In this document: piece by piece, positions 1 through 17,900 of the stretch | How the letters are laid out: the number at the start of each line of letters is the position of its first letter | How positions within the stretch are numbered: position 1 is the first letter of the stretch | Assembly: GCA_000433475.1 (NCBI GenBank) | Contig: HF993109.1 | Span: 133,712-197,711, forward strand | From: Mycoplasma sp. CAG:956 | Lineage (GTDB): Bacteria > Bacillota_I > Bacilli_A > RF39 > UBA660 | Direction of reading: 5' to 3' | Length of the DNA: 64,000 bases | The notes under the pieces: model-generated | The model's database searches: none | Seen by the model: only the letters and a program-made list of their open reading frames with translations | What the model was told of the DNA's origin: nothing | Made by a program: the position numbers and the translations under genes

Positions 1-1
1 T

Positions 2-853
2 TCATATAAAAGTGATGGTACTTTAGATGAAATGTATGAAAGAATATCAATGCTAGATGACGGTGAGAAAAAGGCCAAAGCCTTCTCTAAATATGAGCAA
101 TTATGTCGCAGTGTTGAACAAAGTCAAGGCATTGAAAAAATACTTGGTGATAATTTAAGTCAAGACGGTAAGTATGTTGTTTTCTTACCCGTTGGTCGCA
201 AAAAAGATGGTACCTATTATAATAGTGAAGATGGTAGTAAAATAAGTAGACAACAGGCTGTTTTAATAATGGAAGATTATACTATTTTAATTAGACAATA
301 TTTATATTCCAATGAGTATATGAAAATTCATGGTGATAAGTTATTATCTATTTATGAAAAGATTACTAAAAAACAAGAGTTATCTAAATATGTTGTTTTC
401 TTACCAGTTAGACGTAAAAAAGATGGAAGTTATTATAATAGTGAAGATGGAAGTAAAGTAAGCAAACAACAGGCTGTTTTAATAATGGAAGATTATACTA
501 TTTTAATTAGACAATATTTATATTCTAATGAGTATATGAAGATACATGGTGATAAGTTATTATCTATTTATAATAAAATCATTGCGAAACAAGAACTATC
601 TAGTGAAGATAAAGACTTCTTAAATAAAGAACAAGATAACATTATGTTACTAGATATGGTTAAAATTAAACATAAACCAGCCGTCTTAAATACCTTCAAT
701 AGTACTATAGTAAGTGTGATTGCTAGACACCAAGATTGGGAAAAATTAGATAAAAAAACTCTAAAGATAAGAATAGAAGCCAAGACTTCTGATATGGTTG
801 ATACAAACTCGCTTCTAAGTTACTATAGTAATAGTAAAAATGTTATCTACTGA
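2..853 (+). CDS. 5'-partial N-terminal part of a large tandem-repeat protein, terminated 4 codons after a frame-shifting 247-bp duplication (continues as ORF 840..4355 if one repeat copy is removed)
   Basis: Reading frame is open from window start; contains a 2x74-aa in-frame repeat; last 82 aa are re-encoded in another frame at start of next ORF. Confidence 0.5.
   Translation, partial: SYKSDGTLDEMYERISMLDDGEKKAKAFSKYEQLCRSVEQSQGIEKILGDNLSQDGKYVVFLPVGRKKDGTYYNSEDGSKISRQQAVLIMEDYTILIRQYLYSNEYMKIHGDKLLSIYEKITKKQELSKYVVFLPVRRKKDGSYYNSEDGSKVSKQQAVLIMEDYTILIRQYLYSNEYMKIHGDKLLSIYNKIIAKQELSSEDKDFLNKEQDNIMLLDMVKIKHKPAVLNTFNSTIVSVIARHQDWEKLDKKTLKIRIEAKTSDMVDTNSLLSYYSNSKNVIY
165..608 (+). repeat. 2 x 222-bp in-frame tandem repeat (74-aa unit KYVVFLPV.RKKDG.YYNSEDGSK.S.QQAVLIMEDYTILIRQYLYSNEYMKIHGDKLLSIY)
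   Basis: Direct comparison of nt 165-386 with 387-608; >90 percent identical. Confidence 0.8.
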
Positions 854-1088
854 AGATAAAGATTTCTTAAACAAAGAACAAGATAATATTATGTTACTAG
901 ATATGGTTAAAATTAAACATAAACCTGCCGTCTTAAATACATTCAACAGTACCATAGTAAGTGTGATTGCTAGACACCAAGATTGGGAAAAACTGGATAA
1001 AAAAACTCTAAAGATAAGAATGGAAGCCAAGACTTCCAATATGGTTGATACAAACTCGCTTCTAAGTTACTATAGTAATAGTAAAAAT
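602..1088 (+). repeat. 2 x 247-bp tandem duplication (unit length not divisible by 3) spanning the ORF1/ORF2 junction
   Basis: nt 605-841 and 852-1088 encode the same 80 aa (SEDKDFLNKEQDN...LLSYYSNSKN) in two different frames; ~93 percent nt identity; copy offset 247 nt. Confidence 0.85.
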
Positions 1089-4000
1089 AAATATGAATTA
1101 GCCGAATTTAATAAAGAAACTAATGGTAAACCTAAGTTGTTATTTGTTATGGATAAATTAAACGAAGGAGCCCATTTAAAAGGAGTAAAGGGTATTGTCT
1201 GGTTACGTCCATTAAGTGTTGATTCAAGAATACTATTCTATCAACAGTTAGGTAGATGTATTCATTCTTATCCTGATGGTCATATATTTACCGAAGAAGA
1301 ACGCCCAATAGTAATGGATTTAGTTAATAATATAAATACCGTTAACTTAAAAAGAAATCAATCTCCAATAAATGATTTAGAAGATTTGAAAACTATTATA
1401 GCTTGGATAAATGATAATGGTGGTAAACTTCCTAATAAGAATAGTAATATTTTAGAAGAAAAGAATTATGGTTTAAAATTAGATGTAATTTTATATCGCT
1501 ATATTAAATATTTTAATAATCAAGAAGAATTAAATAGCGTAAAAAATAAAAAAGTAATAGAGGAAATCTTAAGATTAGGTTCCCTAATTGACTTATGGAA
1601 TATCAAAATAGACGAACCGACAAGACAAAGAAAAGAAAAAGAATCAGAAAGAGATGAAGAAAAATTTTTACAAGGATTTTTACAAGTCGAAAGTTCATTC
1701 CGTGATTTTGTTGATTCAAAAGAAGAAATAGATGAGTTGGCATCGCCTGAGTCTACTTTCGATAAGATATTTAATTATTTGACTATTTTAAAAAATCAAG
1801 GGGTTGACATAAATAGTATTAGTAAGTGTGATAAATTGAAGGTAATTAAAACTGATGGTAATTATTTTCTTCAAATAATAAAAAATAAAAGAAAAAAAGG
1901 AAATGGTAAAACAGTTATTATAAATGAAGAAGAATATAAGGAACCGAGCTTAATTTGGATAGGAAGCTATGTCTATGCCTTTAGACAAGGAAAAAATAAT
2001 AAGGATTCAAAAAGTCCAGACTTAGAGGCTGACCAAATTAGTAGATTAAAGACTTTGAATTTCATTTTTGATTGGGAAGTAGATCCTATATTGAATCCAA
2101 GAAGTTTTGAAGATTATATCTTACTCTTAAAAGAGATGCAAAATTCTAAAGATAAGACTGGATATGATATAAACAATATTAAATTTTTAGAAGTAGTAAG
2201 AATATCAAAAATAAATGGTGAGTATGAGTTTGAATATTTTGCTAATAGAGAAGAAGCAAGAAAAAAATATGGCGAAGATGAAGAAATAATTGGAATAGGA
2301 CGCATTATTAATTGCTTTAAAAGAGGAAAAAATATAAATGAAAAAGATTTAACTGCTGAACAGATAAACGAGTTAAGAAATACTGGTTTAATGGTTGTAA
2401 CTGAAAAAGAAAGAGACCATATAATGATGCCCAAAAATTTTGATGATTATGTTAAAGTTTTACAGGCTTTGCAAAATGCTAAAGATAAGACAGGTTGTGA
2501 TATAAATAATATTAAATTTTTAGAGGTAGTAAGAATAATCAAAATAAATGATGAGTATGAGTTTGAATATTTTGCTAATAGAGAAGAAGCAAGAAAAAAA
2601 CATGGTGAAGATGTAGAAATAATTGGGGTAGGCGATGTTATTTATTGGTTCAAAAAAGGAAAAAGCCGTAGTGGAAAAGATTTAACTGTTGAACAGATAA
2701 ATTGGTTAAGAGATATTGGCTTGATGGTTGTAACTGAAAAAGAAAGAGACCCTATAATGAAACCCCAAAATTTTGAAGATTATGTCTTACTCTTAAAAGA
2801 GATGCAAAATTCCAAAGATAAGATTGACCGTGATATAAATGATATTAATAAGAGAAAAGTAGTAAGAATAACCAAAATAAACGATGGGTATGAATTTGAA
2901 TATTTTGCTAATAAAGAAGAAGCAAGAAAAAAATATGGCGAAGACGAAGAAATAATTGGAATAGGAGTAGTTATTAATTATTTTAAAAGAGGAAAAAGCA
3001 GTAGTGGTCAAAAAGATTTAACTACTGAACAGATAAAGCAGTTAAGAGATATTGGCTTGATGGTTGTAACTGAAAAAGAAAGAGATTCTATAATGAAGCC
3101 AAAATATTTTGAAGATTATGTCTTACTTTTAAAAGAAATGCAAAATACCAAAGATAAGACAAGTCGTGATATAAATAGTATTAAATTTTCAGAAGTAGTG
3201 AAAATAACAAAAATAAATGATGATTATGAATTTGAATATTTTGCTAATAGAGAAGAAGCCAGAAAAAAATATGGTAACGATGTAGAAATAATTGGAATAG
3301 GCCTAATTATTTATTGCTTTAAAAGAGGAAAAAGCAGTAGTGGTAAAAAAGATTTAACTGTTGAGCAGATAAAGCAGTTAAGAGATACTGGCTTGATGGT
3401 TGTAACAGAAAACGAAAGAGACCCTCTAATAGAGCCTAAAAGTTTTGATGACTACCTTCTGCTTTTAAAAGAAATGAAAAAGTTCAGAGATAAGACAGGT
3501 CGTGATATAAATGATTTTAAACCAAAAGAAGTAGTGAAAATAACAAAAATAAATGATGAGTATGAGTTTGAATATTTTGCTAATAGTGAAGAAGCAAGAA
3601 AAAAATATGGTGAAGATGTAGAAATAATTGGAATAGGCCTAATTATTTATTGGCTTAAAAAAGGAAAACTTAGCAATCGCGGAAGAGATTTAACTGTTGA
3701 GCAGATAGAAGGGTTAAGAGATATTGGTCTAAGGGTTGTAACCGAAAAAGAAAGAGACACTATAATGGAGCCTAAAAGTTTTGAAGATTATGTTGAACTT
3801 TTAAAAGAATTACAAGAAAATAAAATTGACATCAATGTAATTAAAGTCACAGATAAAATAAGAATTATAAAAAATGATATCGGTTATGATTTTCAAATTG
3901 TTCATAAAAGCAAAGTAATGGTAAATGGTAAAACGACAATTGCTAATAAAGAAGCATATTTTCAGAATGATTTAATGGCGATAGGGATAAAAATTAATCA

Positions 4001-4355
4001 CTTAAGGAAAGGCAAATATTCTGATAAAACATACCTAACCATAGACCAAATGAAAATATTATTAAGCATAGGCTTTAAATTTAATAAAGGAATAGAAGAT
4101 AAAATATATAAACAAGAAATATGTAAGAATCATAATATTGATTTAAAAATAAATGATAAAATAATTGAAAGAATATCAAAAATAGAATTAATAAGTAAGA
4201 TTAACTTTTTAGAAGCAAGTAATTTAGAACTAGTAGATAATGCCGGTAAACTAATAGATATATTTAGTATGAGTAGTATTGATATTCAAGATAACTATGG
4301 TATATCTTTAGAGTCTATAATAAATACTTATGGAAAAGGAGAAACGAGAAAATGA
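840..4355 (+). CDS. Giant HA-like tandem-repeat protein (1171 aa), no signal peptide, conserved family C-terminal module
   Basis: ATG start; ~7 tandem ~112-aa modules (..P.SFEDY..LLKEMQN.KDKTG.DIN.IKF.EVV.I.KIN.EYEFEYFANREEARKKYGEDEEIIGIG.II..FKRGK....KDLT.EQI..LR..GLMVVTEKERD); second half of module resembles HA domain; C-terminus ...ISKIELISKINFL...GKLIDIFSMSSIDI..NYGISLESIINTYG shared with three neighbours. Confidence 0.75.
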   Translation: MLSTEDKDFLNKEQDNIMLLDMVKIKHKPAVLNTFNSTIVSVIARHQDWEKLDKKTLKIRMEAKTSNMVDTNSLLSYYSNSKNKYELAEFNKETNGKPKLLFVMDKLNEGAHLKGVKGIVWLRPLSVDSRILFYQQLGRCIHSYPDGHIFTEEERPIVMDLVNNINTVNLKRNQSPINDLEDLKTIIAWINDNGGKLPNKNSNILEEKNYGLKLDVILYRYIKYFNNQEELNSVKNKKVIEEILRLGSLIDLWNIKIDEPTRQRKEKESERDEEKFLQGFLQVESSFRDFVDSKEEIDELASPESTFDKIFNYLTILKNQGVDINSISKCDKLKVIKTDGNYFLQIIKNKRKKGNGKTVIINEEEYKEPSLIWIGSYVYAFRQGKNNKDSKSPDLEADQISRLKTLNFIFDWEVDPILNPRSFEDYILLLKEMQNSKDKTGYDINNIKFLEVVRISKINGEYEFEYFANREEARKKYGEDEEIIGIGRIINCFKRGKNINEKDLTAEQINELRNTGLMVVTEKERDHIMMPKNFDDYVKVLQALQNAKDKTGCDINNIKFLEVVRIIKINDEYEFEYFANREEARKKHGEDVEIIGVGDVIYWFKKGKSRSGKDLTVEQINWLRDIGLMVVTEKERDPIMKPQNFEDYVLLLKEMQNSKDKIDRDINDINKRKVVRITKINDGYEFEYFANKEEARKKYGEDEEIIGIGVVINYFKRGKSSSGQKDLTTEQIKQLRDIGLMVVTEKERDSIMKPKYFEDYVLLLKEMQNTKDKTSRDINSIKFSEVVKITKINDDYEFEYFANREEARKKYGNDVEIIGIGLIIYCFKRGKSSSGKKDLTVEQIKQLRDTGLMVVTENERDPLIEPKSFDDYLLLLKEMKKFRDKTGRDINDFKPKEVVKITKINDEYEFEYFANSEEARKKYGEDVEIIGIGLIIYWLKKGKLSNRGRDLTVEQIEGLRDIGLRVVTEKERDTIMEPKSFEDYVELLKELQENKIDINVIKVTDKIRIIKNDIGYDFQIVHKSKVMVNGKTTIANKEAYFQNDLMAIGIKINHLRKGKYSDKTYLTIDQMKILLSIGFKFNKGIEDKIYKQEICKNHNIDLKINDKIIERISKIELISKINFLEASNLELVDNAGKLIDIFSMSSIDIQDNYGISLESIINTYGKGETRK
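1750..4100 (+). repeat. Array of ~7 tandem 333-339-bp (111-113-aa) coding repeats; five central copies (approx 2088-3771) near-identical, flanking copies degenerate
   Basis: Repeat starts at ~2088, 2421, 2754, 3090, 3426, 3772 read directly from sequence. Confidence 0.85.
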
Positions 4356-4672: not shown

Positions 4673-4939
4673 CAAGTAACTAAACTGTTAAAGAAATTTA
4701 GCAGTTTTTTGCAAATATCAGTCACATGAAGAATATTTAAAAAAATTGTAAAAAGATCAAATTTAATCGTTGACGTGTTATGATAACAATAGGCATTAGA
4801 ACAAAAAAATATAATGTAATAGTGTTTTTGAAGAAAAATTAAATAAAACTTTGATGTGTAGAAGGTCAAAAGAACCATTACAAAGGAATGCTTAATTTAG
4901 ATGTGCATTTTGTATTTAGGTTACTTGTATAATGTAGTT

Positions 4940-5378: not shown

Positions 5379-6530
5379 ATGCCTAAAATTAATCAACCAG
5401 CCTCTAAAATCAGAATGTCATTTGATGAATGGTTTCCTGTAGCCCAAAAATATTATCAAGAACATAAAAATCTCTTAGTACCCCTAGATTATGAAACTAA
5501 AGATGGTAAAAAGTTAGGAAAATGGATAGCCAGTAAAAGAAAAGATTATGCTAATAATTTATTATCCTTAGAAAAAATTAAGGCTTTAGATAGTATTGGT
5601 ATGGTTTGGAGTATCAACGAAAAGAAATGGAATGATATGTTTAATCTTTTAATAGAGTACAAAAATATCCATGGTAATTTAGATATATCATCTTCATATG
5701 TAACCTTAAGTTGTGTAACTTTAGGCATTTGGCTAAGAGAACAACAAAATTCCTATCTTAGGGGTACCCTAAAAGAAGAAAGACAAGAAAAGTTAGAAAG
5801 TATTGGCATTATTTGGCAAACCAATGAAACAAAATGGTATGAAATGTATAAATATGCTAAAGAATATCAAAAAGAACATGGCACTTTAATAACTACCAAG
5901 AATTATATTACTCCAAATGGTAAGTCTCTAACTGAATGGTTACAAGCCCAACGTAGTGGCTACCACAAGAAAACATTAAAACCCGAAAGAATAAAACTTC
6001 TTGAAGCCATTGGCATGGTCTGGAGTATAAATCAAAGTTATACTTGGCATGATATGTATTTACTTGCCCAAGAATATCAAAAAGAACATGGCAATCTAAT
6101 TATTCCTAGAAATTATAAAAGTAAAAATGGCTTAAATTTAGGCTACTGGCTTTATAAAGAAAAACTAAAATATCGTCAAGGAAAATTAGCACCAGAAAAA
6201 ATTATTGCCTTAGAACACATTGGTATCGTTTGGACTAACAAAATTAATCATGACATTTCTAAATATTTAAGAAAACTAAAAGAATCTGACAATCCAATTA
6301 TTATCGATGAAAAAATTAATGCGGATATTTTAAATAATATTTCTTTAATCGAATTAGAAAGTAAAATTAAATATATAACCGATATGGGAGCCCTACCAAT
6401 AGATAACACTGGTCGTTTAATAGATATATTTACTATAAGTAATACTGATATGGAAGAAAGATACGGCATATCTTTAGAAGCCATGATTGAATCATTTGAA
6501 GTAAGCAGTGCTAGAAAACTATATTATTAA
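5379..6530 (+). CDS. HA (helicase-associated) domain repeat protein, 5 tandem HA repeats plus family C-terminal module
   Basis: RBS AAAGGA; repeats of W..(F/Y)....Y...H.NLLVP..Y.T.DGK.LG.WI...R..Y....L..E.I..L.SIGMVW; C-term ...NISLIELESKIKYI...G.LIDIFTISNTDMEERYGISLEAMIESF. Confidence 0.75.
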   Translation: MPKINQPASKIRMSFDEWFPVAQKYYQEHKNLLVPLDYETKDGKKLGKWIASKRKDYANNLLSLEKIKALDSIGMVWSINEKKWNDMFNLLIEYKNIHGNLDISSSYVTLSCVTLGIWLREQQNSYLRGTLKEERQEKLESIGIIWQTNETKWYEMYKYAKEYQKEHGTLITTKNYITPNGKSLTEWLQAQRSGYHKKTLKPERIKLLEAIGMVWSINQSYTWHDMYLLAQEYQKEHGNLIIPRNYKSKNGLNLGYWLYKEKLKYRQGKLAPEKIIALEHIGIVWTNKINHDISKYLRKLKESDNPIIIDEKINADILNNISLIELESKIKYITDMGALPIDNTGRLIDIFTISNTDMEERYGISLEAMIESFEVSSARKLYY

Positions 6531-6734: not shown

Positions 6735-9359
6735 ATGAATGAATTATTTAATATGACTAATTGTTATACAGATACTGACTATTATTATTTTTATCAAGAT
6801 TTAAATAAAGATAATAAGTTTAATTTTTCTGTTTATAATAATCATACTTTAAAAGACTTACTAAAAATAGTAGAAACTAAATATGGTAAAGATACCAGTT
6901 GTCTTTCTCTAAATGTTTTAACCAATGTTAGTTTAATCTATGGCAGTAATGACTTTATAAAAAAATATATTATAGTTAAAATACCAAAAGTAATTTTAAA
7001 ACAAAAAAAGTTTAAGGAAATAGTAAAAAATATTAATTATTATTTTAATGACGATCAAAAACAAATATTATTTAAAATATATCCCAAAGAAAAAATAAAA
7101 CAAGAATATGATCATTTTTTAAATCCTCAAAATTTTCTAGACTATGCTAATATTTTAAAAAAATTACAAGAAGCTGGATACGACTTAAATGACATAAAAT
7201 TTGATAGTAAATTAAAAGTTGAAAAAGTAAATGATAGTTATAAATTTACTATTATTAGAAAAAAATTAAAAAAAGTAGGTCAAGTTTATGTTATAGATAA
7301 TAAAACTGAGTATAATGATCCTAATCTAATTAAAATAGGTCGCAAATTATATTATTATGAAAAGGGTAAGAAGTACCAATTTGAAGAAAGCATAGATTTA
7401 AATGCCGAAGAAATAAAAACACTACGTGATATTGGATTATATGTTATTTCAGAAAAAAATAGAGATCATATTTTATACCCTAAAAATTTTGAAGATTATT
7501 TTAATCTTTTGAAAAAATTACAAGAATCAGGTATTGATATTAATAGCATTATAGCTAGTGATAATTTAAGAATAATAAAATTTAATAACATTTACAAGTT
7601 TGAAGTAATAAAGAAAAATGTCAAAAAAGCTAAAGATGATAGTAATAACACTTTAAATAACCTAGAATCCAATCAAGTAAACATAATAAAAATTGGTAAA
7701 AAAGTTACTGCTTTTAGAAAAGGTAAAAATTCCGTTGCCACCGATAGTGAACCTTTAAGTGATGATAATTTAGAAAATCTGCAAAGCATTGGCTTTAATA
7801 CCCCTTATCTAAAAAGATTAGAAAGAGAAATAAATCCTAAAACTTTTACTGATTATTTTAATCTTTTAAAAAAATTACAAAATTATGGTGTTGATATAAA
7901 TAAAATAACTAGTAATGATAAAGTAAAAGTTATCAAAATAAATAATGATTTTAGCTTTAAAATTATAAAAAGAATAGTAAAAACAGATAAACAAGGTCAA
8001 AAAATCACAATAAATAGCGATGAATATTATAAAGAAGACCTAATACCAATAGGCTATAAAGTAGTGGCCTTTAAAAAAGCCAAACAAGGTCCCGATAAAG
8101 ATAGTCCTTATCTTACCGAAGAAGAAATTAAAAAATTACAAAGTATTGGTTTAGAAGTAATAAAAGAAAGAGATATAATTTTAAATCCTAAAAGTTTCCT
8201 TGATTATATGGCTATTTTAAAAAAACTCCAAGAAGATGGTTACAATCTTAATGATATCTATTTTACCGATAAGTTAAAAATAACTAAAGAATCAAATAAA
8301 TATAAGTTAGAAATTATAAAAGAAGACTCTAAAGAATATAAAATACCAGGTTTAATGACCATCGGTCAAAAACTATATTGTTTTAAAAGAGGAAAATATA
8401 ATAATAGTCCTAGTAGTAGAGATTTAACCCCAGATGAAATAGCTATTTTAAATACCTTAGGTTTTAAATTAGCTATTGAAGAAAAAAAATCCATTGATTA
8501 TATTGAATTATTAAAAAGATTAAAAGAATCTGGTTATGATATAAATAAGATTAAATATTATGATAAAGTAAAAATAACTAAAAATAATCATGAATTTAAA
8601 TTAGAAATTATAAATGAAAATGATCCATTATATAACCAACCAAATTTAATATTAATCGGACCACACGTTTTATCTTTTAAAAAAGGAAAAAAATTTCAAT
8701 ATTCAGGACCAACTGATTTGAGTTCTGATGAAATAACTAGATTACAGAATATCGGTTTAGTAATATTAAATGATCATGTATTGTATCCGCAAAGTTTTAA
8801 TGATTATTTTAATATTTTAAAACTTTTACATGAGTCTGGTTATAATATAATGGATATCAAGACTACCAGTCGCCTTAAAGTAACAAAAGAAAATGGTAAA
8901 TATTTCTTTAAAATTATTAACAAGGAAGATCAAGAATGGCAAAATAAAGATTTAATTTTTATTGGTCGTAAAGTAAAATCTTTTGAAAGTGGTAAAAATT
9001 CTCCTGGTAATCACTCTAGTTATTTAACTGTAGTAGAAATAAATAATCTCCTTAGTATTGGTTTTACTTTTAAAAAGAAAATCGAAGACATTATTTATAA
9101 AAGAGAAATATGTAAAACTTTTAATATCGATATAAAATTAAATCAAGAAATAATAGATAGAATATCTAAATTGGAATTAATAAGTAAAATTAAATATTTA
9201 ATTAAAGAAAAGAATATGCCTATATTAGATAATAATGGTAATTTAGTAGATATTTTTACCATGAGTAGTCTCGATATAGAAGAAAAATATGGCATATCTT
9301 TAGATACTATAATTTCTACTTATGGTTATAAGCAAGTAAAAAAGTTAAATTTAATATAA
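6735..9359 (+). CDS. HA-like tandem-repeat protein (874 aa), ~7 divergent ~110-aa modules, family C-terminal module
   Basis: Modules .NP..F.DY..LLKKLQE.G.D.N.I......K..K.N..Y.F.II.K.......I.....Y.....I.IG.K...F.KGK........L...EI..L..IG; C-term ICKTFNIDIKLNQEIIDRISKLELISKIKYL...NGNLVDIFTMSSLDIEEKYGISLDTIISTYG. Confidence 0.7.
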   Translation: MNELFNMTNCYTDTDYYYFYQDLNKDNKFNFSVYNNHTLKDLLKIVETKYGKDTSCLSLNVLTNVSLIYGSNDFIKKYIIVKIPKVILKQKKFKEIVKNINYYFNDDQKQILFKIYPKEKIKQEYDHFLNPQNFLDYANILKKLQEAGYDLNDIKFDSKLKVEKVNDSYKFTIIRKKLKKVGQVYVIDNKTEYNDPNLIKIGRKLYYYEKGKKYQFEESIDLNAEEIKTLRDIGLYVISEKNRDHILYPKNFEDYFNLLKKLQESGIDINSIIASDNLRIIKFNNIYKFEVIKKNVKKAKDDSNNTLNNLESNQVNIIKIGKKVTAFRKGKNSVATDSEPLSDDNLENLQSIGFNTPYLKRLEREINPKTFTDYFNLLKKLQNYGVDINKITSNDKVKVIKINNDFSFKIIKRIVKTDKQGQKITINSDEYYKEDLIPIGYKVVAFKKAKQGPDKDSPYLTEEEIKKLQSIGLEVIKERDIILNPKSFLDYMAILKKLQEDGYNLNDIYFTDKLKITKESNKYKLEIIKEDSKEYKIPGLMTIGQKLYCFKRGKYNNSPSSRDLTPDEIAILNTLGFKLAIEEKKSIDYIELLKRLKESGYDINKIKYYDKVKITKNNHEFKLEIINENDPLYNQPNLILIGPHVLSFKKGKKFQYSGPTDLSSDEITRLQNIGLVILNDHVLYPQSFNDYFNILKLLHESGYNIMDIKTTSRLKVTKENGKYFFKIINKEDQEWQNKDLIFIGRKVKSFESGKNSPGNHSSYLTVVEINNLLSIGFTFKKKIEDIIYKREICKTFNIDIKLNQEIIDRISKLELISKIKYLIKEKNMPILDNNGNLVDIFTMSSLDIEEKYGISLDTIISTYGYKQVKKLNLI

Positions 9360-9459
9360 AATAAAATACTATTAAGAAAAAACACTTAATAGTATTTTTA
9401 ATATTGCTAAATTTAAAAAAAGTAGTATAGTATAGAAAATTAATTAAAAAGGGGATTTT

Positions 9460-10857
9460 ATGATTAAAAAAAGTATAAGAAAAAATCCAAAGGATAATTT
9501 TGATGAGTGGTTTAAAATAGCAGCATATTATTATAAAAAACATAACAATCTATTAGTGCCCGCTAACTATTTAACCGAGGATGGTAAAAAATTAGGAGAG
9601 TGGATAATTTATATTCGAACTAAATATAATTCTGATGACCAAAAAATAACTAAAGAGCAAAAAGAAATGCTAGATTCTATTGGTATGGTTTGGAACTTAT
9701 ATGATTATAGATGGCAAGAAAGATTTAATCAAGTTAAAAAGTTTTATGATGAATATGGAACCATAGAACTTTTACCAACCTATCAGGGAAAAGAAGGCTT
9801 AAAACTCTTAAACTGGATAAAATTTCAAAGAAATATTTACTATAGTAAAAGTAAGAAACCAAAAGATCTAGAAAAAATTGCTAAATTAGAAAGTATTGGC
9901 GTCATTTGTCATCATAAAGATGAAATGTGGGTTTCCATGTATAACTTAGCTTTCTTATATTATAAGAAAAACAATAATCTATTGATTCCTGCTTGTTATG
10001 AAACTACTCTTGGTAAAAAACTTGGTATCTGGATAAGAAATCAAAGAAAAAGTTATTCTGATGGTAATTTATCTGAAATTAAAATCGCAGCCTTGGAATC
10101 TATTGGCATGGTTTGGCATGTTTATGAAAATAAGTGGAACCTAATGTATAAAGAAGCCTTAACTTATTATCAAAAATATCATACTATCAGTATTTATAAA
10201 GACTATAAACCAACTTATGTAACCAAAGAAGAACTATGTCAGTGGTTAGCAACTCAAAAGATATATTATAAACAACATAAAAATTTAACTCTTGAGCAAT
10301 ATAAGAAACTAAATTTAATTAAAATAGACTTTGACTATCAAGAAGATAATTGGAATTATATGTATAACTTGGCAACTAATTACTATTTAGAAAATGGTCA
10401 TTTACTAATTCCTAGAACCTTTAAATCTGAAGGTAAGAATTTAGGTATTTGGTTAGAATCACAACGTCAACATTACCAAAAACAAAAACTTTCTGAAGCA
10501 AAAATTCTTCTTTTAGAATCTATCGGTATCATTTGGCAACCGAGAAAAAATCTTTCATCTATATATAATTATTTAGATGAAAATTATCCTTTAATTGATA
10601 AACGACTTAACAGGGATGTTTTAAACCGTATTTCCTTACTAGAACTAATTGCTAAAATTAATTATTTAATTTGTTGTAAACATACTTCCTTTATTTATAG
10701 TAATGGGCTTTTAAAAGATATATTTTCTATGAGTAGTATAGCTATCAAAAATGATCCTAACTATGGTATTTCCTTAGAAGAAATAATTAATACCTATGGT
10801 AAAGAATATATTTTAAAATATAATAAAAATATGAAAGGTAAAACTTTAGACTTATAA
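9460..10857 (+). CDS. HA (helicase-associated) domain repeat protein, 6 tandem HA repeats plus family C-terminal module
   Basis: RBS AAAGGGGA; HA repeats (..W...Y......Y.......L.P..Y.T..GKKLG.WI..QR..Y......E.KI..LESIGMVW); C-term LNRISLLELIAKINYL...NGLLKDIFSMSSIAIKNDPNYGISLEEIINTYG. Confidence 0.75.
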   Translation: MIKKSIRKNPKDNFDEWFKIAAYYYKKHNNLLVPANYLTEDGKKLGEWIIYIRTKYNSDDQKITKEQKEMLDSIGMVWNLYDYRWQERFNQVKKFYDEYGTIELLPTYQGKEGLKLLNWIKFQRNIYYSKSKKPKDLEKIAKLESIGVICHHKDEMWVSMYNLAFLYYKKNNNLLIPACYETTLGKKLGIWIRNQRKSYSDGNLSEIKIAALESIGMVWHVYENKWNLMYKEALTYYQKYHTISIYKDYKPTYVTKEELCQWLATQKIYYKQHKNLTLEQYKKLNLIKIDFDYQEDNWNYMYNLATNYYLENGHLLIPRTFKSEGKNLGIWLESQRQHYQKQKLSEAKILLLESIGIIWQPRKNLSSIYNYLDENYPLIDKRLNRDVLNRISLLELIAKINYLICCKHTSFIYSNGLLKDIFSMSSIAIKNDPNYGISLEEIINTYGKEYILKYNKNMKGKTLDL

Positions 10858-10948
10858 GAAGAAAGAGAAAATTTACTAATTTCCCTTGCTTTTTTTTTCT
10901 ATTTATAAGATAATTAAGAAGTATAGATAGTAAGGAGTCGTAAAAAAT

Positions 10949-13561
10949 ATGGAATATGGTATCGATTATATATTAAAATTACCAACTGAAGATATAAAAA
11001 CTTATTTAGAAAGTGCTAGTATAATAGATATCCTAGCCATCTTAGAAAATATCAAAAAACGTAAGGAAATGGATTATGCTTCTTTAAACAAATTAGAAAA
11101 ATTAGAAGAGCAAATTAAAATAAATAAAAATTACCTTACTGATATCGATAAACGTATAAATTTTGCTACTAAAACTAATGCTCCTAAAGTAGAAGTTGAT
11201 TTATTATGGGAAGAATATAGTCGTTATGATGCCATTATCGATGATTTAACTAGTAAAAAAGAACAATTAATTCAAGGATTTAATGATAAAAAACAAGCCA
11301 TTTTTACTTTAGCATGGAATATGATCTTAGAAGCTCCTGTATCTAAATTAGAAGATTACCGAAACAGCCTTATCACATGGCTAAAAAATAGAATAGAAGC
11401 TATTGAAACTAATAAGAGCAACAGGGAAATAACTACCAATACACTTTTAGAAGATAGAAACTTTACTAAAGAAGATCTAACTGTTAAATCAATTGATGCC
11501 GAGATTAAAGAAATGGAATCTCAAGTTCTAAATCATGAACTTATTTTAAATGAAGAAACTATTGGGAAGATTAAATCATTAAGAGCTAAAAAAGAATCAT
11601 TAGAACATGAAACTTTTACTTTTGTTTGCACAGAAAAGATAAAAACGTCTCTAAAAACTATTAGTAATGATATAACTAAATTACAGATGGAATTATCTAA
11701 CATTATTCAAATGGACATTGAATCTTTAAAAGAAATGATTTTAAGTGATTATGCTCAAGGCAAAGAAGAAATAAAATTAGCCAACTACGTTCGTATTTAT
11801 CGCTCTTATTTAGAAAATATTAGTAAAGTACCTCTTACTTTAAAAGCAGCATATCGTAATATTTGCCTAAACTATGCTAATCTTTTAAATTCCATAGAAA
11901 ATCCTAGCTTTGAAGGGGAAACTCTTAATGATTTAGATATTAAATTAAAAGAATTACATAATTATATAAAAACTTTAGAACAATATAAAACTAAAAAAAA
12001 TGATAAAACTACCGAAACTAAGTTCTTATATACTACTGTAAGACAACAAGGCTTATTTGAACTTCCTTTCTCTAAAGATAAATGGTTATCTTATTTTGGT
12101 AAATATTTTGAATCCTTACTTAACGAAATTAAACCATTAGAAGAAAAGAATAAAGAATATATCTCTTTAACAACAGTTAGTCTAAAGAGTAAAAAGATAG
12201 AAGAAGAATTAGACTTATATCGTAAAGACTTAAGAAGTATGTTAGATGAACTATATAACAAAGTTTTATCCATATATTTAAAGAATAATTTATATATTAA
12301 TGTTAATGTTTATGATTATCGTGATACCGAAACATTTACTAAGTACTTAGAATATCAAACTATTAGTATCGATAAAGAAATAGCAAGTGTTAAAACTACT
12401 ATTGAAGGATTAAATAGTAAGAAGAGTAATATCTTAGAATTAATTAATGATACTTATAGTAAGATTGATACTGATATTAAAGCTAAATTAAATAGTATTT
12501 TTAATGGAACTTATGTAAAAGAAGAAGAACAAGAAGAAAAACCTCATCATTTCTTTGCAAGTCCTACTACATTAGAACCTAGTTATAATGATACTTTTGA
12601 TGATACAACTAGTAATTTAGAACCTATAAGTAAGGTAGAAGAAGAACCAGAAGTATCTGAATTTGATTCTTTCTTTGCTACTGATATTCCTTTTAAAGAT
12701 GATGATACAGAAGAAAATAATGAACTACCAGAAGAAGCTCCTACAAGACCTAAACATGAATTAGAACCAGATGAAGTTCCTTTGAAAGAAAAAGAAATCA
12801 AAGATGAACAAAGTAACAATTCTAGCATAACCACCTTTAATCCCGATGATATCTTTGGTAGTACATCAAATACTTTAGATAATGCTTTAGAAGAAGAGCA
12901 AAAACAAGAACCAGTAGTTTCAAAAGAAGAAGATGATACGGTAATTTCTTTTGATAGTGAAGATATAGCATCAACAAAGGCCTCAGAAAAAAAAGAAGAG
13001 GCTAGTGAAGCTAGTGCAGTATCTGATGATATAAACTTTGATGATGCTATATCATCATCTGATAGAGAAGCTTTTAAAGAACTACTTGAACCTCAAAAAG
13101 TGCCAGATTTTAATACCATAATTAATACTCCTGAACCAAGTACTAAAGAAGAAAAAAACAAAATCAAAAAAAGAGGACTTAAAGTAATTAAACAAGAACC
13201 AGTAGTTTCTAAAAAAATGTCAAAGAAAACACCAGAGGTAGTTTCAAAAACAACTGTTAAAACGGATGCTACTGAGATTAAAGAACGAATCGAAAACAGC
13301 CAAAATGATAGACAAAGTAAAAATGTACCACCACTATTTAATCCGGCTAGTGCTAGTGATGTAAAAAGTGAATACAATGATACTAATGCTCCAATTGATT
13401 TAAATGCTTTTCTAAATGGCAACCTTTCAAATCCAACAGAAAAACAAGAAACTAAAGAAGTTGATGATAAAACTAAAAAATTAACTTTAAGTCAAGATGA
13501 TAATATAAATTTGATGGACTTTTTAAACCAAATTGAAAATAACGATGCTAAAGTAGCTTAA
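10949..13561 (+). CDS. Hypothetical 870-aa coiled-coil protein with long acidic Ser/Glu/Pro-rich disordered C-terminal half
   Basis: RBS AAGGAG; heptad-like K/E/L-rich N-terminal 520 aa; C-terminal ~350 aa dominated by E, D, S, P, T. Confidence 0.7.
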   Translation: MEYGIDYILKLPTEDIKTYLESASIIDILAILENIKKRKEMDYASLNKLEKLEEQIKINKNYLTDIDKRINFATKTNAPKVEVDLLWEEYSRYDAIIDDLTSKKEQLIQGFNDKKQAIFTLAWNMILEAPVSKLEDYRNSLITWLKNRIEAIETNKSNREITTNTLLEDRNFTKEDLTVKSIDAEIKEMESQVLNHELILNEETIGKIKSLRAKKESLEHETFTFVCTEKIKTSLKTISNDITKLQMELSNIIQMDIESLKEMILSDYAQGKEEIKLANYVRIYRSYLENISKVPLTLKAAYRNICLNYANLLNSIENPSFEGETLNDLDIKLKELHNYIKTLEQYKTKKNDKTTETKFLYTTVRQQGLFELPFSKDKWLSYFGKYFESLLNEIKPLEEKNKEYISLTTVSLKSKKIEEELDLYRKDLRSMLDELYNKVLSIYLKNNLYINVNVYDYRDTETFTKYLEYQTISIDKEIASVKTTIEGLNSKKSNILELINDTYSKIDTDIKAKLNSIFNGTYVKEEEQEEKPHHFFASPTTLEPSYNDTFDDTTSNLEPISKVEEEPEVSEFDSFFATDIPFKDDDTEENNELPEEAPTRPKHELEPDEVPLKEKEIKDEQSNNSSITTFNPDDIFGSTSNTLDNALEEEQKQEPVVSKEEDDTVISFDSEDIASTKASEKKEEASEASAVSDDINFDDAISSSDREAFKELLEPQKVPDFNTIINTPEPSTKEEKNKIKKRGLKVIKQEPVVSKKMSKKTPEVVSKTTVKTDATEIKERIENSQNDRQSKNVPPLFNPASASDVKSEYNDTNAPIDLNAFLNGNLSNPTEKQETKEVDDKTKKLTLSQDDNINLMDFLNQIENNDAKVA

Positions 13562-13595
13562 GTTTAATAGATAATAGTAAATACATAAAAAAATT

Positions 13596-14069
13596 GGTTC
13601 AATAAAATCTAGTGTGAAGAGAGATGATAAAATTTCATCTCTTTTTATGTGGTAATATGTAGTAAATAATAATAGGAAGGCGAGTATAGATGAAAGATTA
13701 TTATTTGCTAATAGGATTAAATAGTAAGGAGGTTAAAATAATAATGGATTAATAGAAATTACTATTGAGAATAGGAAAAAGAAAGTAAGGTGTCCTGTCT
13801 GTAATAAATTTACAAGTTCAGTACATGATAAATTAAAGCCTATAAGAAGTGTTTATTTAGATAGTTGTGGTTCAACAAGAAACAAAAATATCTCCAACAT
13901 TAAAAATAAGAAATAAATTTTTTACTCGATTATCAAAATTTTAATAATATTAAAAACGTTCAAAAAATAACTAAAAAAATCATATCAAAAAAAATGTAAA
14001 AAAATCCGTAAATTCCTTATGTTATAAGGCATCATGCAGATTTTTACTTCACACTAGATTTTATTGAAC
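13596..14069. mobile_element. MITE-like internally deleted ISL3-family remnant bounded by perfect 24-bp inverted repeats
   Basis: GGTTCAATAAAATCTAGTGTGAAG at 13596-13619 is the exact reverse complement of 14046-14069; interior encodes fragmented ISL3-like transposase N-terminus (MKDYYLLIGLNSKEVKII.. then ..RCPVCNKFTSSVHDKLKPIRSVYL zinc-finger-like) broken by stops. Confidence 0.55.
13617..13648 (+). terminator. Rho-independent terminator hairpin (agagatga-loop-tcatctct + T-run) after 10949..13561
   Basis: 8-bp perfect stem 13620-13627/13635-13642 followed by TTTTT. Confidence 0.5.
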
Positions 14070-14121
14070 CATAATTCTTGCTTATCCTTTATCTTTGTGT
14101 TACCTTAAATTTGGTGATAAT

Positions 14122-14895
14122 ATGCAAATAATTAAATATACTAAAAAAGGTTCTAATAAATATGAATTGACTTTAAAAGATAATACTAAATTACTAGTAT
14201 ATACTGACCTTATTTTAGAATATAACTTATTAATAAGAAAAAATCTTGATCCTAATACTTTAAAGAAAATAAAAAGTGCTAATCTAAAACTAGAATGTTA
14301 TTATAAAACCTTAAAGTATTTAAAAAATACTAAATGTACTAGTGATATAAAAAACTATTTAAAAGATTATCCTTCTAATATAGTTGATTATACTATTAAA
14401 AGATTAACTAAAGAAGGTTATTTAAATGATAATAATTACATTAAATCTTATATAAATACTAAAATAAATTTAAGTAATGATGGTTATTATAAAATATATT
14501 ATTATTTAAAAAATAAAGATTTAGATGAAACTATTATAAAAAATTATCTAAATGATATTGAAGATAATATCTGGTTAGATAAAATAAATAAGATAGTAAA
14601 TACTAAATTAAAAAGTAATACTAAGTATAGTAATAACTTATTAATAAGTAAAATAAAAACTTATCTTAAAACACTTGGATATCAAGATTATCTAATTAAT
14701 ATAGCCTTAGATAATATTAATTTAGATACCTCTAAAGAAGATGAAAAATTAGAAAAAGACTATCTAAAATTATTTAATAAATATAAAAATAAATATGAAA
14801 AAAATAAGTTAAATTATATTTTAATAGGTAAACTATATCAAAAAGGTTATGATTTAGATAAAGCCAAAAGAGTAGTAGAAACTTCCAATTTGTGA
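14122..14895 (+). CDS. recX: Recombination regulator RecX
   Basis: GGTGA RBS then ATG; three-repeat helical pattern with ..YELTLKDNTKL.V..D.I..Y.L.....L........K.A.......YYKTLKYL..T..S..E...YL......I...I.RL...GYLNDN.Y..SYI.......GY.KI...L..K.. typical of RecX family; tool start 14095 is TTG. Confidence 0.6.
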   Translation: MQIIKYTKKGSNKYELTLKDNTKLLVYTDLILEYNLLIRKNLDPNTLKKIKSANLKLECYYKTLKYLKNTKCTSDIKNYLKDYPSNIVDYTIKRLTKEGYLNDNNYIKSYINTKINLSNDGYYKIYYYLKNKDLDETIIKNYLNDIEDNIWLDKINKIVNTKLKSNTKYSNNLLISKIKTYLKTLGYQDYLINIALDNINLDTSKEDEKLEKDYLKLFNKYKNKYEKNKLNYILIGKLYQKGYDLDKAKRVVETSNL

Positions 14896-14920
14896 TAAAA
14901 TTAGCATAATAGGAGTAAGT

Positions 14921-17900
14921 ATGAATAATAAATTAAGTATTGAAGAATTTAGAAAATATAAAGAACAATTACAAAAAATAATTGATGACTTTAAAAATAA
15001 TTATGAAGTAATGAAAAATAATCCTTCTTATAATGAAGCCCAAGAAGAAGAAAAAAGCATTGCTGCCTATTTTAAAATTGAACAAGATCTTTTTAGTCAT
15101 GATTTAAGTGCTATCCCATACGAAGAGTATCAAAACCTATCAATTATGGCAACAGACCAAGAAGAATTAGATCTGTCAAATAGCCATGCTAATATTGATT
15201 TTTCACTCATCGAGGTATTTGGACACTGCAATTTTAAGGGGTGTAACTTAAAAAATATTGAAAAAGTAAATGATAGAATAAGTCCTAAGTATTTAGATAC
15301 TGATATCTTTTTAAAAAATAAAGATTTATTTTTATCTAGTAGTTTTCCCGAATGGTTCCAAGAAAAATGGTACTATGGTGATTTATCAATCGAAGATGTA
15401 ACTAAATTAGATAAGACTTTAATAGAAGAACTTATCAGTAATCCGCAAATTTTATATCATCTTAGTAATAGTCATGATGTTTATATAATTAGAAATTTAG
15501 GCTTAAAAAAGGCTCTTTCTATCTATAATTATTCTAAAGAAGAATATCAAGTCTTAAATAACCTTATATTTAATCTATCAAGTGCTAATTTTAATAAGAT
15601 AGACCAATCATTAACTGATCCCGAAGCAATTATTAAAAATATTTATCAAATCTCTGTTGATGATATATTAGCGGTAGATAATGAGTATTTTAAAAGAAGA
15701 TTAAAGCCAGAAAGTTATCATCAAAAATTTGTTGAGGCTAATGAAAATATTTTTAAAACTAAGAGTAACTTACCAGAAGATGTTAAAAATAGATATTATG
15801 AACACAATCTTAGTGTAAATGATGTTTTAAATAACTATGAGGAATTCAAAAATATTCCCTTATTAGGATTTATGAAATCAATAACAAGTAGTTCTAAAGA
15901 TATAATTTGTAATATTAATTTAGCTTATGGTAGTATGGCTTTTCAACAAGTTTATCCATTATATCCCAAATTAATTAAACATTTAAATGATGCTGATATT
16001 TTTTTAAGTTTTAATAAAAATTATGATGTAAAAACTGGTTTAAGAGATGCCGTTACTAATTGCTTAGAATGCTTTAAAGAAAAAAAAGTACCCGATTGGG
16101 CAAATGAAATGTTTACAAGTATTGTTCCTAAATATTACGATATAAGCAATTTGAAAAAATATAATCCCCAAATTTGCTTATATGATCCCTTGCAACGCAA
16201 AATAGTAGAAACTAACAACGTTGATAATGCAATCAAATTTAATGACGAAACACATTTTTTTGATTATGTGGACGATAGAAGTCCCGTAAATGCCTTTATC
16301 TTATATTTAAAAAGAAGTAATATTGACTTTAAAGAATTTGCTACTTATCAAGAATTTCGTGCCTTTATGGCAGAGCATTTAGGAAAAATGCGAGAAAAAA
16401 ATTACTTTAAAGATTATGATTCCTACGCCTTTATTCCGACCTATTCCAAAGCTTTTTACCAAGATTTTCGTCATATCTTTATTGATTTAAATAGCAATGG
16501 AACCTTACAAAAAGCCTTCTATGATAATAGATTAACACCTGATTATATAAGGCTTTATCCTAAGTGTTTTAAAGATTTAGAACACGAAGATTTAAGATAT
16601 GTTATAAGTAGCGATAATAAAAAATTTAAAGAAGTATTTATTCCTTTTTATACCAGTCATTTTGGTAATTTAGCATTATTAGATATTTTTAAAAAATATG
16701 CTTATAACAATTATCTAGTTGATTCCCTTGACCAAATAAAGTTAGATGAGGGTATGACTAAGGAACAAATTGATAAAAAAATAAGAAGCATTACTTATAG
16801 TAATATTTTAAAATACAGCCAGTTTTATTGGAAAAATTTAAAAAGTGATCCTTTATTTGCTAAAGAATATCCAGAACTTATTCTATCCGAAGATGAAATA
16901 ATGACACCAAGTGGCATAGTCCAAAATGACATTATCGATAAATTTTACAGAGGTAAATTAACTTTTGATGATATATTTACTTGTAAACCGCTAGCTTTAG
17001 CCTTACAACATAAAAATATCAATGTTGCCATTAGAAACAATAGTACTTATTATTTTGGCAATGGTATGAACGAAGCTCAAATTTATCTAAAACAGTTAGG
17101 CCAAGAAGACTTTCTAAAATTATGTAGTACTTTTGGTAAATTCTTAGATAATTCCATTAACAGAATTAAATTTTCTAATGATATTTCTTATTCCGAATTA
17201 TGTAAACAATTAGAAGAACTAACTGTTAAAAAAGCAACTTATGAAGGTATTCCTTTTAATGAAAGCAATGCCCCTTCCTTCTTAGTACAACAGCATCCTG
17301 AACTTTTCTTGGATGAATCTGCTCCTTGGGGGTTAAAAATGGCTTTTGAGGATGGTATTGATTTTTACTCTTTAGCAGCTAACTATAATGAGACTTTCCC
17401 TTTCTTAAAAGATAAAGCGGCTGTAAGTTTCTTTATCAGAAAAGATAAAGGACATAAAGGTGCCATTGCTAATTATTTTAATCTTTTTGGTAATATAGAT
17501 GCCTTAAAACTTGCTGGTAAAAAGCCCGATATTGTAACTAAAATGATTCATCATGATAAGGTTTACAATTTAAGAACCTGGTATTTAAAAACAGGTGGTA
17601 AATTTATTCCTGATCCAGTTGTTATGGAAAATTTTCCCCTAGATGATGTTGATAAATTCTTAACAGCAGGATTTAAATGGAGCAATTTAATGCGTTTATC
17701 AGAATTTACTAAAAATGATGAAACCAAAGAAGCCTTGCTAAAAATTGCTTATGTTTTTGGTACTTTTGATAATGATGATAGGGGCTATAAAAAAGTATAT
17801 GACTTATTAACTGAATTGCCGACTAAGTTTAAAGAAGATATTGGTTATATCTTTGATAACTTAGATAATGCTCTAGATAGTAATGCTAATTTTAATGTTT

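Follow-up and report, generated by a model that had tools for sequence, protein, structure and literature searches.

A two-allele block splits a giant SF2 helicase gene in the Mycoplasma sp. CAG:956 record

Genuine and false duplications within genes

Internal tandem duplications that disrupt an open reading frame (ORF) have been described in the pneumococcal genes cap3A, cap8E and tts. According to the passages of PMC4243769 that cite Waite 2001 and 2003, these duplications arise spontaneously and revert, and their precise loss restores the ORF. Duplications can also be false: Ko et al. (2022, Genome Biol 23:205, PMC9516828) documented assembly errors in which diverged alleles stand side by side in one sequence and gene models are broken or inflated. 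The cases of Ko et al. come from diploid vertebrate assemblies, lie in unusually divergent regions with close paralogues, are missing from better or independent assemblies, and usually have copies separated by a gap or a depth gap. A further comparison is the ordinary bacterial pseudogene, where an insertion that is not a multiple of three cuts an ORF in two while relatives keep it whole.

Here we describe a duplicated block in a 64,000-nt stretch of contig HF993109.1 (the window; all coordinates are window positions, and all features of the block and its gene lie on the plus strand). The source assembly, Mycoplasma sp. CAG:956, is a short-read, metagenome-derived, population-level assembly of a MetaHIT co-abundance group (MGS) from 2014. 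Genomes of the MGS type are composites reconstructed at the population level (PMC4914512), and the method behind CAG:956 is known here through secondary sources, PMC4782286 and PMC4914512.

The locus compares in part with each described system. As in cap3A, cap8E and tts, an internal tandem duplication disrupts an ORF that reopens when one copy is removed; unlike in those genes, the copies are two alleles (94.9% identical), the repeat is a compound of 216 and 247 nt, it has a single known occurrence, and the wild type is not regained when one copy is lost. As in the cases of Ko et al., diverged alleles are adjacent in one sequence, a gene model is broken, the region is unusually divergent with close paralogues, and independent assemblies lack the duplication, whereas the present assembly is of a bacterial population and its join contains no N. 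As in an ordinary pseudogene, the ORF is intact in relatives and the insertion is not a multiple of three, but the insert here is a second allele of the segment that it interrupts, and no further decay is visible downstream.

The helicase and the block that interrupts it

We found that intact homologues of the interrupted gene are single ORFs of 1,592 to 2,043 aa. The usual form of the gene, we conclude, is a single ORF of about 2,040 aa whose product is an SF2 helicase (ResIII/DExH); its second RecA domain (RecA2) contains a helical insert, and its C-terminus carries an array of 112-aa repeats. The helicase region (aa 544-695) matched the Pfam families ResIII (E = 5.9e-18) and DEAD (E = 4.5e-10). 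Membership in SF2 is borne out by two RecA-like domains in which motifs I, II, III, IV, V and VI are all present, including GSGKS at 574 (Walker A), DELH at 656 and TATPE at 688 (TATPER), followed in RecA2 by KYVVF at 803, NEGAHL at 979 and QQLGR at 1006. An AF2 model of the helicase core had a pLDDT of 85.7, and its top Foldseek matches were SF2 helicases. The best of these were RIG-I/MDA5 Hel2i, Hef/FANCM, XPB, RadD and LlaBIII (type ISP), with E values of 4e-11 to 1e-9; RIG-I/MDA5 and Hef/FANCM likewise carry a helical insertion in RecA2. Sequence identity to the structural matches was only 11-16%, with overall TM-scores of 0.22-0.41 (query-normalised), and no PDB entry matched at the sequence level. 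The structurally matched helicases contain nothing equivalent to the 540-aa N-terminal region or to the C-terminal repeats.

The repeats lie in frame at 2081..3809, where a unit of 336 nt (112 aa) occurs 5.2 times in succession, and their copy number varies among homologues. Similarity to the HA domain (PF03457) is weak, at 25.0 bits for the downstream ORF and 19.9 bits for the intact protein, both below the gathering threshold of 28.4 bits. Two neighbouring genes, at 5379-6530 and 9460-10857, are clear members of the HA-domain family (218.7 and 227.4 bits). NCBIfam returned nothing for the helicase, PADLOC gave a weak helicase-motif match only, a plasmid search gave no match and IMG/VR held no relative; these searches lend no support to an origin from a mobile element or a defence system.

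In the CAG:956 record the gene is annotated as two ORFs. The 3' part of ORF1 occupies 1..853, extends past the left window edge and ends in a TGA stop at 851-853; it belongs to CCY89213.1 (881 aa, "DNA or RNA helicases of superfamily II", Mycoplasma sp. CAG:956). ORF2, at 840..4355, is CCY89214.1 (1,171 aa, "helicase associated domain protein"), and its start overlaps the ORF1 stop by 14 nt. Comparison of the window translation with P0350, the ORF1 protein, gave the same C-terminal ending, NSKNVIY followed by the stop at 853. P0350 begins at residue 149 of full-length homologues, and thus 148 N-terminal residues are missing. TGA is a stop codon in CAG:956, because ORF2 and its NCBI protein both end at TGA; even under code 4, with TGA as Trp, ORF1 would not be rescued, as a TAA follows two codons further on.

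The initial annotation had described a tandem duplication at a 247-nt offset, about 93% identical and coding for the same 80 aa in two frames. We recovered this repeat by three routes. TRF reported a period of 247 nt at 597-1088 with 2.0 copies and 94% matches (score 893), a pairwise repeat search found 95% identity between 597-841 and 844-1088, and a direct count over 605-841 and 852-1088 gave 225/237 identical nucleotides (94.9%) and 77/79 identical residues, in frames 2 and 0. The repeat and the two frames therefore stand, with slightly higher nucleotide identity and with peptides that are similar but not the same. It was also correct that the offset is 1 mod 3, that the upstream frame ends in NSKNVIY at 853, and that a gene present elsewhere as one uninterrupted ORF is split by the frameshift that the duplication causes.

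The 247-nt repeat is only half of the structure. A neighbouring 216-nt tandem repeat (169-384 and 385-600; copies 88-91% identical by TRF and repeat search) makes up the other half, and the two together form a single 463-nt anomaly with the order a' a b b'. The gene is thereby longer by 463 nt (1 mod 3), which shifts the reading frame. From left to right, the anomaly and its surroundings consist of a "pre" segment (1..168), unit a' (169..384; 216 nt or 72 aa; omega 0.10 against a), unit a (385..600; 216 nt, the first half of the out-of-register block), unit b (597..843; coding part 605-841), unit b' (844..1090; coding part 852-1088) and a single-copy flank (1089..1247). Joining 2..604 to 852..4355 gives an open frame of 1,368 codons, and in this respect the proposal that deletion of one copy would fuse the two ORFs was right; it overlooked that 72 aa would still be extra, because the 216-nt repeat belongs to the same anomaly.

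We examined the ends of the block, junctions J1 and J2. An 8-nt direct repeat, GTTATCTA, flanks the inserted block, with one copy at 379..386, at the end of a', and the other at 842..849, at J2; a rare G is common to both sides. J2 joins ...AGTAAAAAT of unit b to GTTATCTACTGAAG of unit b'. Microhomology amounts to 1-2 nt at J1 and is lacking at J2, and there is sequence overlap at neither. Inspection of the junction sequences by eye revealed no inverted repeats at the block ends, and the window contains no N anywhere, so no assembly gap lies between the copies.

The start codon of ORF2 had been placed inside the second copy. Instead, the ATG at 840..842 straddles J2 (AAAAAT/G) and arises from it. 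It has no Shine-Dalgarno sequence on its 5' side, unlike most other genes in the window, which have a GGAG-like site. We conclude that this start codon is an accident of the junction. Within the window sequence, the overlap of the two ORFs, AATGTTATCTACTGA, contains neither a slippery heptamer nor a prfB-like CUU-UGA site; with no slippery site, and with a junction that is absent from every relative, programmed ribosomal frameshifting was rejected.

The gene is interrupted within RecA2. In the AF2 model, the region of a and b forms strand 1 of RecA2, the helical insert and strand 2, and unit a' encodes the first RecA2 strand, KYVVFLPV (motif IV), with the start of the insert. Motif V (KLLFVMDKLNEGAHLKGV) and motif VI (QQLGRCIH) lie at 1134..1265, in ORF2 only. 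Within the RecA2 sheet the cut lies after strand 2 and before motif V; the motif IV strand is missing from ORF2.

Allelic composition and occurrence in relatives

Comparison with related loci showed that the block contains two alleles. The inner units a and b (385-841) were identical at 457/457 positions to an allele, A, present in loci L001, L002, L013, L014 and L015; it is borne by intact 2,042-aa genes of near-identical strains from four independent gut metagenomes. The outer copies and flanks belong to other alleles, with 87.6% and 94.5% identity to A, the former value applying to the pre segment. We refer to the pre segment, a', b' and the single-copy flank as B type. Window positions 1-386 were 97.9% identical to L034 (the P0081 locus) and 844-1247 were 98.0% identical to L035, and the body of ORF1 was closest to P0052 (97.2% aa identity). 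From 1248 on, the window matched the A-type loci L013 and L014 without a difference over some 3.4 kb. The following 9-15 kb were 99.98-100% identical to other assemblies, with values of 99.9-100% for the backbone in L004, L031, L032 and L033, and the sample behind Logan SRR29904084 showed 100% identity over 9.3 kb. Because the best matches differ (L034, L035, P0052 and A), a span of about 3 kb combines three or four types of allele, and this mixture adjoins more than 14 kb of essentially single-strain sequence.

Units b and b' differ by 10 synonymous and 2 non-synonymous substitutions (omega 0.04, p = 2e-6), whereas the neutral expectation is about 80% non-synonymous changes (193.7/237 sites). 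The single-copy flank has the same pattern, with 11 differences from allele A of which 10 are synonymous. Since the b/b' differences are mostly synonymous, they represent ordinary allelic divergence and not decay after duplication. Past 1247, ORF2 showed zero other changes relative to intact alleles over 3.1 kb.

A search for the donor among paralogue U, which lies upstream in the closest strains (P0048; L015-L017), and L034, L035 and L036 did not yield the exact B allele; U was only 88.9% and L036 93% identical to the B-type segments. The 28-mer predicted for a B-type a'/b' junction had no match in the JGI metagenomes. U and D share identical runs of 59 nt across the a/b border and of 212 nt at 1275-1486, which would account for a crossover near 1248, but for neither J1 nor J2.

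All of the approximately 196 homologues that cover the region, and all 36 related loci, contain exactly one a and one b. The junction was absent from the 36 loci, and a junction 24-mer found no match among the GTDB genomes or the JGI metagenomes. The gene is intact and single-copy in L001, L002, L008, L013 and L014, and MEGAHIT re-assemblies of ERR209457 and ERR321468 likewise contain the A allele in intact form. Tandem paralogues occur in L015, L035 and L008, with a further locus in L036. The upstream neighbourhood is of the peptidase M23/M50-U type in L015, whereas the P0052-like paralogue of L036 has a Lon-RT context. Split copies, broken at other positions, were found in other assemblies (P0207+P0215 and P0213+P0214). 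The helicase family is multi-copy, hypervariable and strongly mosaic. In the short-read assemblies L003, L004 and L010-L014, a contig ends in or beside the helicase gene, which therefore is a known trouble spot.

Assembly join or cellular rearrangement

A second-allele block that is found only once, in one metagenome-derived record from 2014, is most likely an assembly chimera or a lesion private to one strain, and not a genetic switch. The best reading, which we hold with about even confidence, is a two-allele (heterotype) false duplication by mis-assembly. The comparisons establish that two alleles are present, that the structure is unique, that the gene is intact elsewhere and where in the fold the break lies; we infer that the join was made by the assembler rather than in a cell. 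The 5' third of the helicase gene in the record would then be a patchwork of alleles, with the 463-nt A block lying out of register between B-type a' and b'. Reads of two or more co-occurring alleles or paralogues would have been recruited and assembled into one path, so that both 463-nt versions were set down in succession. The gene of the real organism would be intact, and the join would have produced the split, together with the stop codon and restart ATG, as by-products.

Several observations are consistent with this reading. The copies are allelic, the template was heterogeneous and unphased, and independent assemblies of near-identical strains have a single copy. The divergence of b and b' has the allelic pattern of the single-copy flank, the structure is unique to this record, other short-read assemblies break at this gene, and the ORF2 start is accidental. 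In addition, the missing N-terminus of ORF1 is a second defect in the same gene of the same record, yet ORF2 is otherwise unchanged relative to intact alleles. The assembly gap expected between falsely duplicated copies is absent, as the window contains no N. We take the assembler of the record to have been Velvet. For a pure de Bruijn assembler to produce a junction, its k-mers must be present in the reads, and scaffolding of the Velvet type leaves runs of N. With neither an overlap at the junctions nor an N, an assembly error would therefore require blind abutment or faulty gap filling, neither of which we could document for this assembly. The paired GTTATCTA with its rare G looks like the signature of a molecular insertion or a template switch, but could equally be explained by two B-type contigs that overlapped by 8 nt.

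The main rival to mis-assembly is a real pseudogenising rearrangement, private to one strain, by a double template switch during replication or repair; we consider it a serious possibility, if on balance doubtful. The cell would have held two versions of the gene, as tandem or dispersed paralogues or as DNA arriving from a related strain. Synthesis would have left B at the end of a', copied A-type a and b 216 nt out of register, and rejoined B 8 nt upstream, with a frameshifted pseudogene too young for further decay as the product. Since the family is multi-copy and mosaic with tandem paralogues, two alleles per cell and frequent exchange are plausible. Microhomology of 0-2 nt and an 8-nt duplication of the B target with its rare G are typical of illegitimate recombination and template switching, the contig has no N, and copies split at different positions occur in further assemblies. 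This history nevertheless supposes that one event included two illegitimate switches, each between different alleles, with a donor block that is 100% identical to the allele carried intact at the same locus by the closest strains. The structure is known from one record, and that record is a 2014 short-read population assembly. Further, the gene has a second lesion, yet ORF2 has gathered no neutral change over 3.1 kb.

We regard it as very unlikely that a' a b b' is a real product of a one-step double template switch with both products expressed, either reassembling into a split helicase or reverting by recombination between b and b'. If it were true, it would represent natural inter-allelic, copy-choice remodelling of a gene in an uncultured, Mollicutes-like gut bacterium.

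The initial annotation had also raised an ON/OFF phase switch mediated by RecA, in which deletion between b and b' gives ON and re-duplication gives OFF. Deleting one copy does regain an open frame, the perfect runs shared by b and b' (50, 39 and 38 nt) suffice for occasional homologous deletion, and reversible intragenic duplications are described for the pneumococcal capsule locus (PMC4243769). The copies here are two different alleles and not a spontaneous perfect duplication (94.9% identity, omega 0.04), and the reverse step could not rebuild a two-allele structure. The pneumococcal copies are reportedly perfect, with both forms coexisting in a single strain; among the assemblies compared here (about 196 homologues and 36 loci), only the one-copy form recurs, no other strain or paralogue has the two-copy form, and the junction 24-mer went unmatched. 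Removing one copy of b would not restore the wild type, because the extra 72-aa a' stays in RecA2 and 148 N-terminal residues are missing, and ORF2 has no ribosome binding site. We therefore consider a phase switch extremely unlikely.

It is scarcely credible that the gene is functionally split, with ORF1 (RecA1 and half of RecA2) and ORF2 (the b module, motifs V and VI, and the repeats) both made and reassembling, and the b module kept in both by selection. Both copies are free of stops with almost exclusively synonymous differences, and the 14-nt overlap could permit translational coupling. However, two intact alleles are the source of the synonymous pattern, which is the same in the single-copy flank, the RecA2 sheet is cut, ORF2 has no motif IV strand, the ORF2 ATG is accidental and lacks a ribosome binding site, and no other genome has the same split. 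Finally, a simple in-situ 247-nt duplication that later diverged by about 5% as an ageing pseudogene would give the tandem layout and the 94.9% identity, but it is refuted by the two-allele composition (copy 1 and the preceding 216-nt unit match an external allele, the divergence lies wholly in copy 2 and runs on into the single-copy flank, and the 216-nt repeat has the same inner-versus-outer asymmetry), by the 2/12 non-synonymous changes between b and b' where neutral decay predicts about 80% (p = 2e-6), and by the unchanged ORF2 downstream of 1247, and has next to no remaining likelihood. The other proposal of the initial annotation, a recent pseudogenising duplication, is likewise not supported as a simple in-situ event, since copy 1 is of one allele and copy 2, with its flank as far as 1247, of another.

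Whether an assembler or a strain made it, the defect is confined to one record, the gene being intact everywhere else, and it teaches nothing about regulation. We conclude that CCY89213.1 and CCY89214.1 each represent a piece of a single helicase of about 2,040 aa; to treat them as two families, or as a split gene, would be wrong. Such cases can be recognised without reads by a copy that equals an external allele, differences that are nearly all synonymous, divergence that continues into single-copy flank, and an accidental start codon. The helicase family is of more interest than the duplication: it is a giant SF2 family with a Hel2i-like insert, a variable number of 112-aa repeats, tandem paralogues and strong mosaicism.

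Structure of the split helicase gene

The giant SF2 helicase gene at the left end of the window is present as two pieces: ORF1, which runs from past the left window edge to a stop at 851-853, and ORF2 (840-4355), which encodes 1,171 aa. In NCBI these are CCY89213.1 and CCY89214.1, respectively, on a 206,111-nt contig of Mycoplasma sp. CAG:956. TRF identified a period-247 repeat with 2.0 copies in the window (597-1088, 94% matches, score 893), and a repeat search found 95% identity between 844-1088 and 597-841. Compared in coding register, 605-841 and 852-1088 were identical at 225 of 237 nt and 77 of 79 aa, read in two different frames. These results verify the duplication reported in the initial annotation, the same peptide encoded in two frames, and an upstream frame ending (...NSKNVIY*) soon after the copy junction. 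Joining 2..604 to 852..4355 gave an open frame of 1,368 codons, so removing one copy does restore a single frame, as had been proposed. The ORF2 start was also correctly placed at 840, but its ATG does not lie inside the second copy; the junction itself creates it (AAAAAT/G). This ATG lacks the GGAG-like site that precedes most genes in the window. Directly upstream is an in-frame tandem repeat of period 216 (169-600), and a 336-nt repeat of 5.2 copies occupies 2081-3809. Besides these three, we found no large near-identical tandem repeats in the 64-kb window.

We refer to the 216-nt units as a' (169-384) and a (385-600), and to the 247-nt units as b (597-843) and b' (844-1090). Nucleotides 385-841 were identical (457/457) to intact loci L001, L002, L013, L014 and L015 from four samples, whereas 1-386 had only 87.6% identity to the same loci. 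Segment 844-1247 differed from L013/L014 at 24 positions, all within 850-1247, and from 1248 up to where L014 ends (~nt 4712) the sequences were identical. Therefore, the order is a'(B) a(A) b(A) b'(B), where A is the allele in the intact genes of the closest strains and B is the sequence of the outer copies and flanks. Removing 463 nt (216+247) made the window colinear with every relative. At the first junction, B ...CAAGAGTTATCT(A) meets A AAATATGTTG, and at the second, A ...AGTAAAAAT meets B GTTATCTACTGAAG; the 8-mer GTTATCTA, which carries a rare G, flanks the block on both sides. The B segments resemble real alleles of intact genes (97.9% identity to L034 and 98.0% to L035), and the ORF1 body has 97.2% aa identity to the family protein P0052. 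No match to the exact B allele was found.

All divergence between copies was confined to the outer copies. Units b and b' differ by 10 synonymous and 2 non-synonymous changes (omega 0.04; synonymous excess p = 2e-6), omega was 0.10 for a versus a', and the non-duplicated flank (1089-1247) had an omega of 0.02 and a dS of 0.41 relative to allele A. Given the low omega in all three comparisons, the divergence is of the ordinary allelic kind, accumulated while the genes were functional.

The helicase family and its neighborhood

Near-identical human-gut metagenome contigs, which we retrieved by exact-protein look-ups of neighboring genes, carry a single ORF of 1,818-2,042 aa with ResIII/DEAD domains at this locus. 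A database search returned more than 240 homologues, and the best 120 were full-length (1,474-2,043 aa), falling mostly into length classes ~112 aa apart, which is the repeat unit. Most lengths lie near 1,595, 1,705, 1,818, 1,930 and 2,040 aa, with two cluster members of 2,264-2,265 aa. Copy number of the 112-aa (336-nt) in-frame array differs among strains and paralogues (P0001-P0120, P0351, P0357), which appears to reflect real gain and loss of repeats, in contrast to the 247-nt duplication.

The protein contains the helicase motifs GSGKS, DELH, TATPER, KYVVFLPV, NEGAHL and QQLGR. Modeled with AlphaFold (alignment of 53 sequences; pLDDT 85.7, pTM 0.81), residues 530-1110 form two RecA domains, and the top structural matches of the model are SF2 helicases, several with a RecA2 insertion; the best were RIG-I/MDA5, Hef, FANCM, XPB, RadD and LlaBIII. 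In the model, unit a (aa 803-874) supplies RecA2 strand 1 (motif IV) together with a hairpin and a helix of 40 residues, and unit b (aa 876-954) forms more helices and RecA2 strand 2, with motifs V and VI next. Because of this placement, the break severs the RecA2 sheet, leaving ORF1 without motifs V and VI and ORF2 without the motif IV strand.

Helicase alleles show strong mosaicism between strains, and tandem paralogues occur in L035 (8001-21536), L008 (1-9381) and L015 (10001-22554). In L035, each copy is followed by a 106-aa gene, with an AbiEii-family gene between the copies; L008 apparently has the same order, its upstream copy being cut by the locus end, and in L015 only a 33-aa remnant ORF follows the upstream copy. 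L036 carries a P0052-type helicase (8795-15460) elsewhere in the chromosome, in a Lon ... LepA context; the gene immediately upstream of it encodes a 317-aa reverse transcriptase (RVT_1) and has a divergent orientation. Within the window, a C-terminal module of ~60 aa (...ISKIELISKINYL...VDNxGKLIDIFSMSxxDIxxxYGISLExII...) is common to four neighbors: the helicase, 383-aa and 465-aa HA-domain proteins, and an 874-aa protein (4132-4322, 6298-6488, 9121-9314 and 10589-10669). The module matched no known family and may have a common role in docking or targeting.

The source record

CAG/MGS-type genomes are population-level composites (PMC4914512), for which reads mapping to a co-abundance gene set are pulled out per sample and then reassembled (PMC4782286). 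The first residue of ORF1 (P0350, 881 aa) corresponds to residue 149 in full-length homologues; therefore, the same gene has a second defect upstream of the window. Beyond the 5' region of the helicase, the window was 99.98-100% identical to other assemblies with one exception, two substitutions and a 1-nt deletion at 13,958-13,993 that are private to this record versus six other assemblies. This cluster spans ~50 nt of A/T-rich intergenic DNA (13946-14004) where the six mutually agree, and represents a local error in the consensus or, alternatively, a strain marker. Contigs end in or beside the helicase gene in several modern assemblies. Other assemblies also have the helicase as two ORFs split at other positions, after motif VI or inside the repeat array (P0207 and P0215, 29,363-nt contig; P0213 and P0214, 148,519-nt contig); these may be true pseudogenes or errors of assembly or sequencing.

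Relatives are labeled as uncultured Bacilli or Tenericutes gut MAGs. The window has ~27% GC, translation with code 11 leaves its long ORFs open, and TGA (4353-4355) terminates both ORF2 and its NCBI protein. Despite the record name, we conclude that this is not a code-4 Mycoplasma but a Mollicutes-like gut bacterium in which TGA serves as a stop.

Possible origins of the a' a b b' structure

False duplication of diverged alleles, placed side by side, is a documented assembly error (PMC9516828). We put the chance that a' a b b' is such an artefact at about even. In its favor, three or four allele types are mixed within ~3 kb, and a gene that is otherwise pristine has two structural defects. In addition, the donor block is identical to the intact allele of the closest strains, the structure is unique, and the record is of the CAG/MGS type. 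Against it, the 8-nt flanking repeat resembles a molecular signature, and the junctions have neither overlap nor N; such joins are not expected from a plain de Bruijn assembler.

A serious rival, to which we assign a somewhat less than even chance, is a real private lesion made by a double template switch between co-resident paralogues, which is consistent with the tandem paralogues in L015, L035 and L008 and the further locus in L036.

All other explanations are jointly improbable. The recent in-situ pseudogenising duplication suggested initially did not hold up, since the copies are two alleles, with a synonymous excess, the same pattern in the flank and divergence in the outer copies only. 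An ON/OFF phase switch or functional split is rejected because a and b each occur exactly once in all ~196 family proteins spanning the region, the junction 24-mer had no match in the 36 fetched loci, 185,579 GTDB species genomes or JGI metagenome contigs, and the ORF2 ATG is accidental. Perfect b/b' runs of 50, 39 and 38 nt make occasional deletion possible; the product would still contain the surplus a' unit, and there would be no way to regenerate the two-allele structure. Whether artefact or real private lesion, the split is an isolated defect rather than a mechanism.
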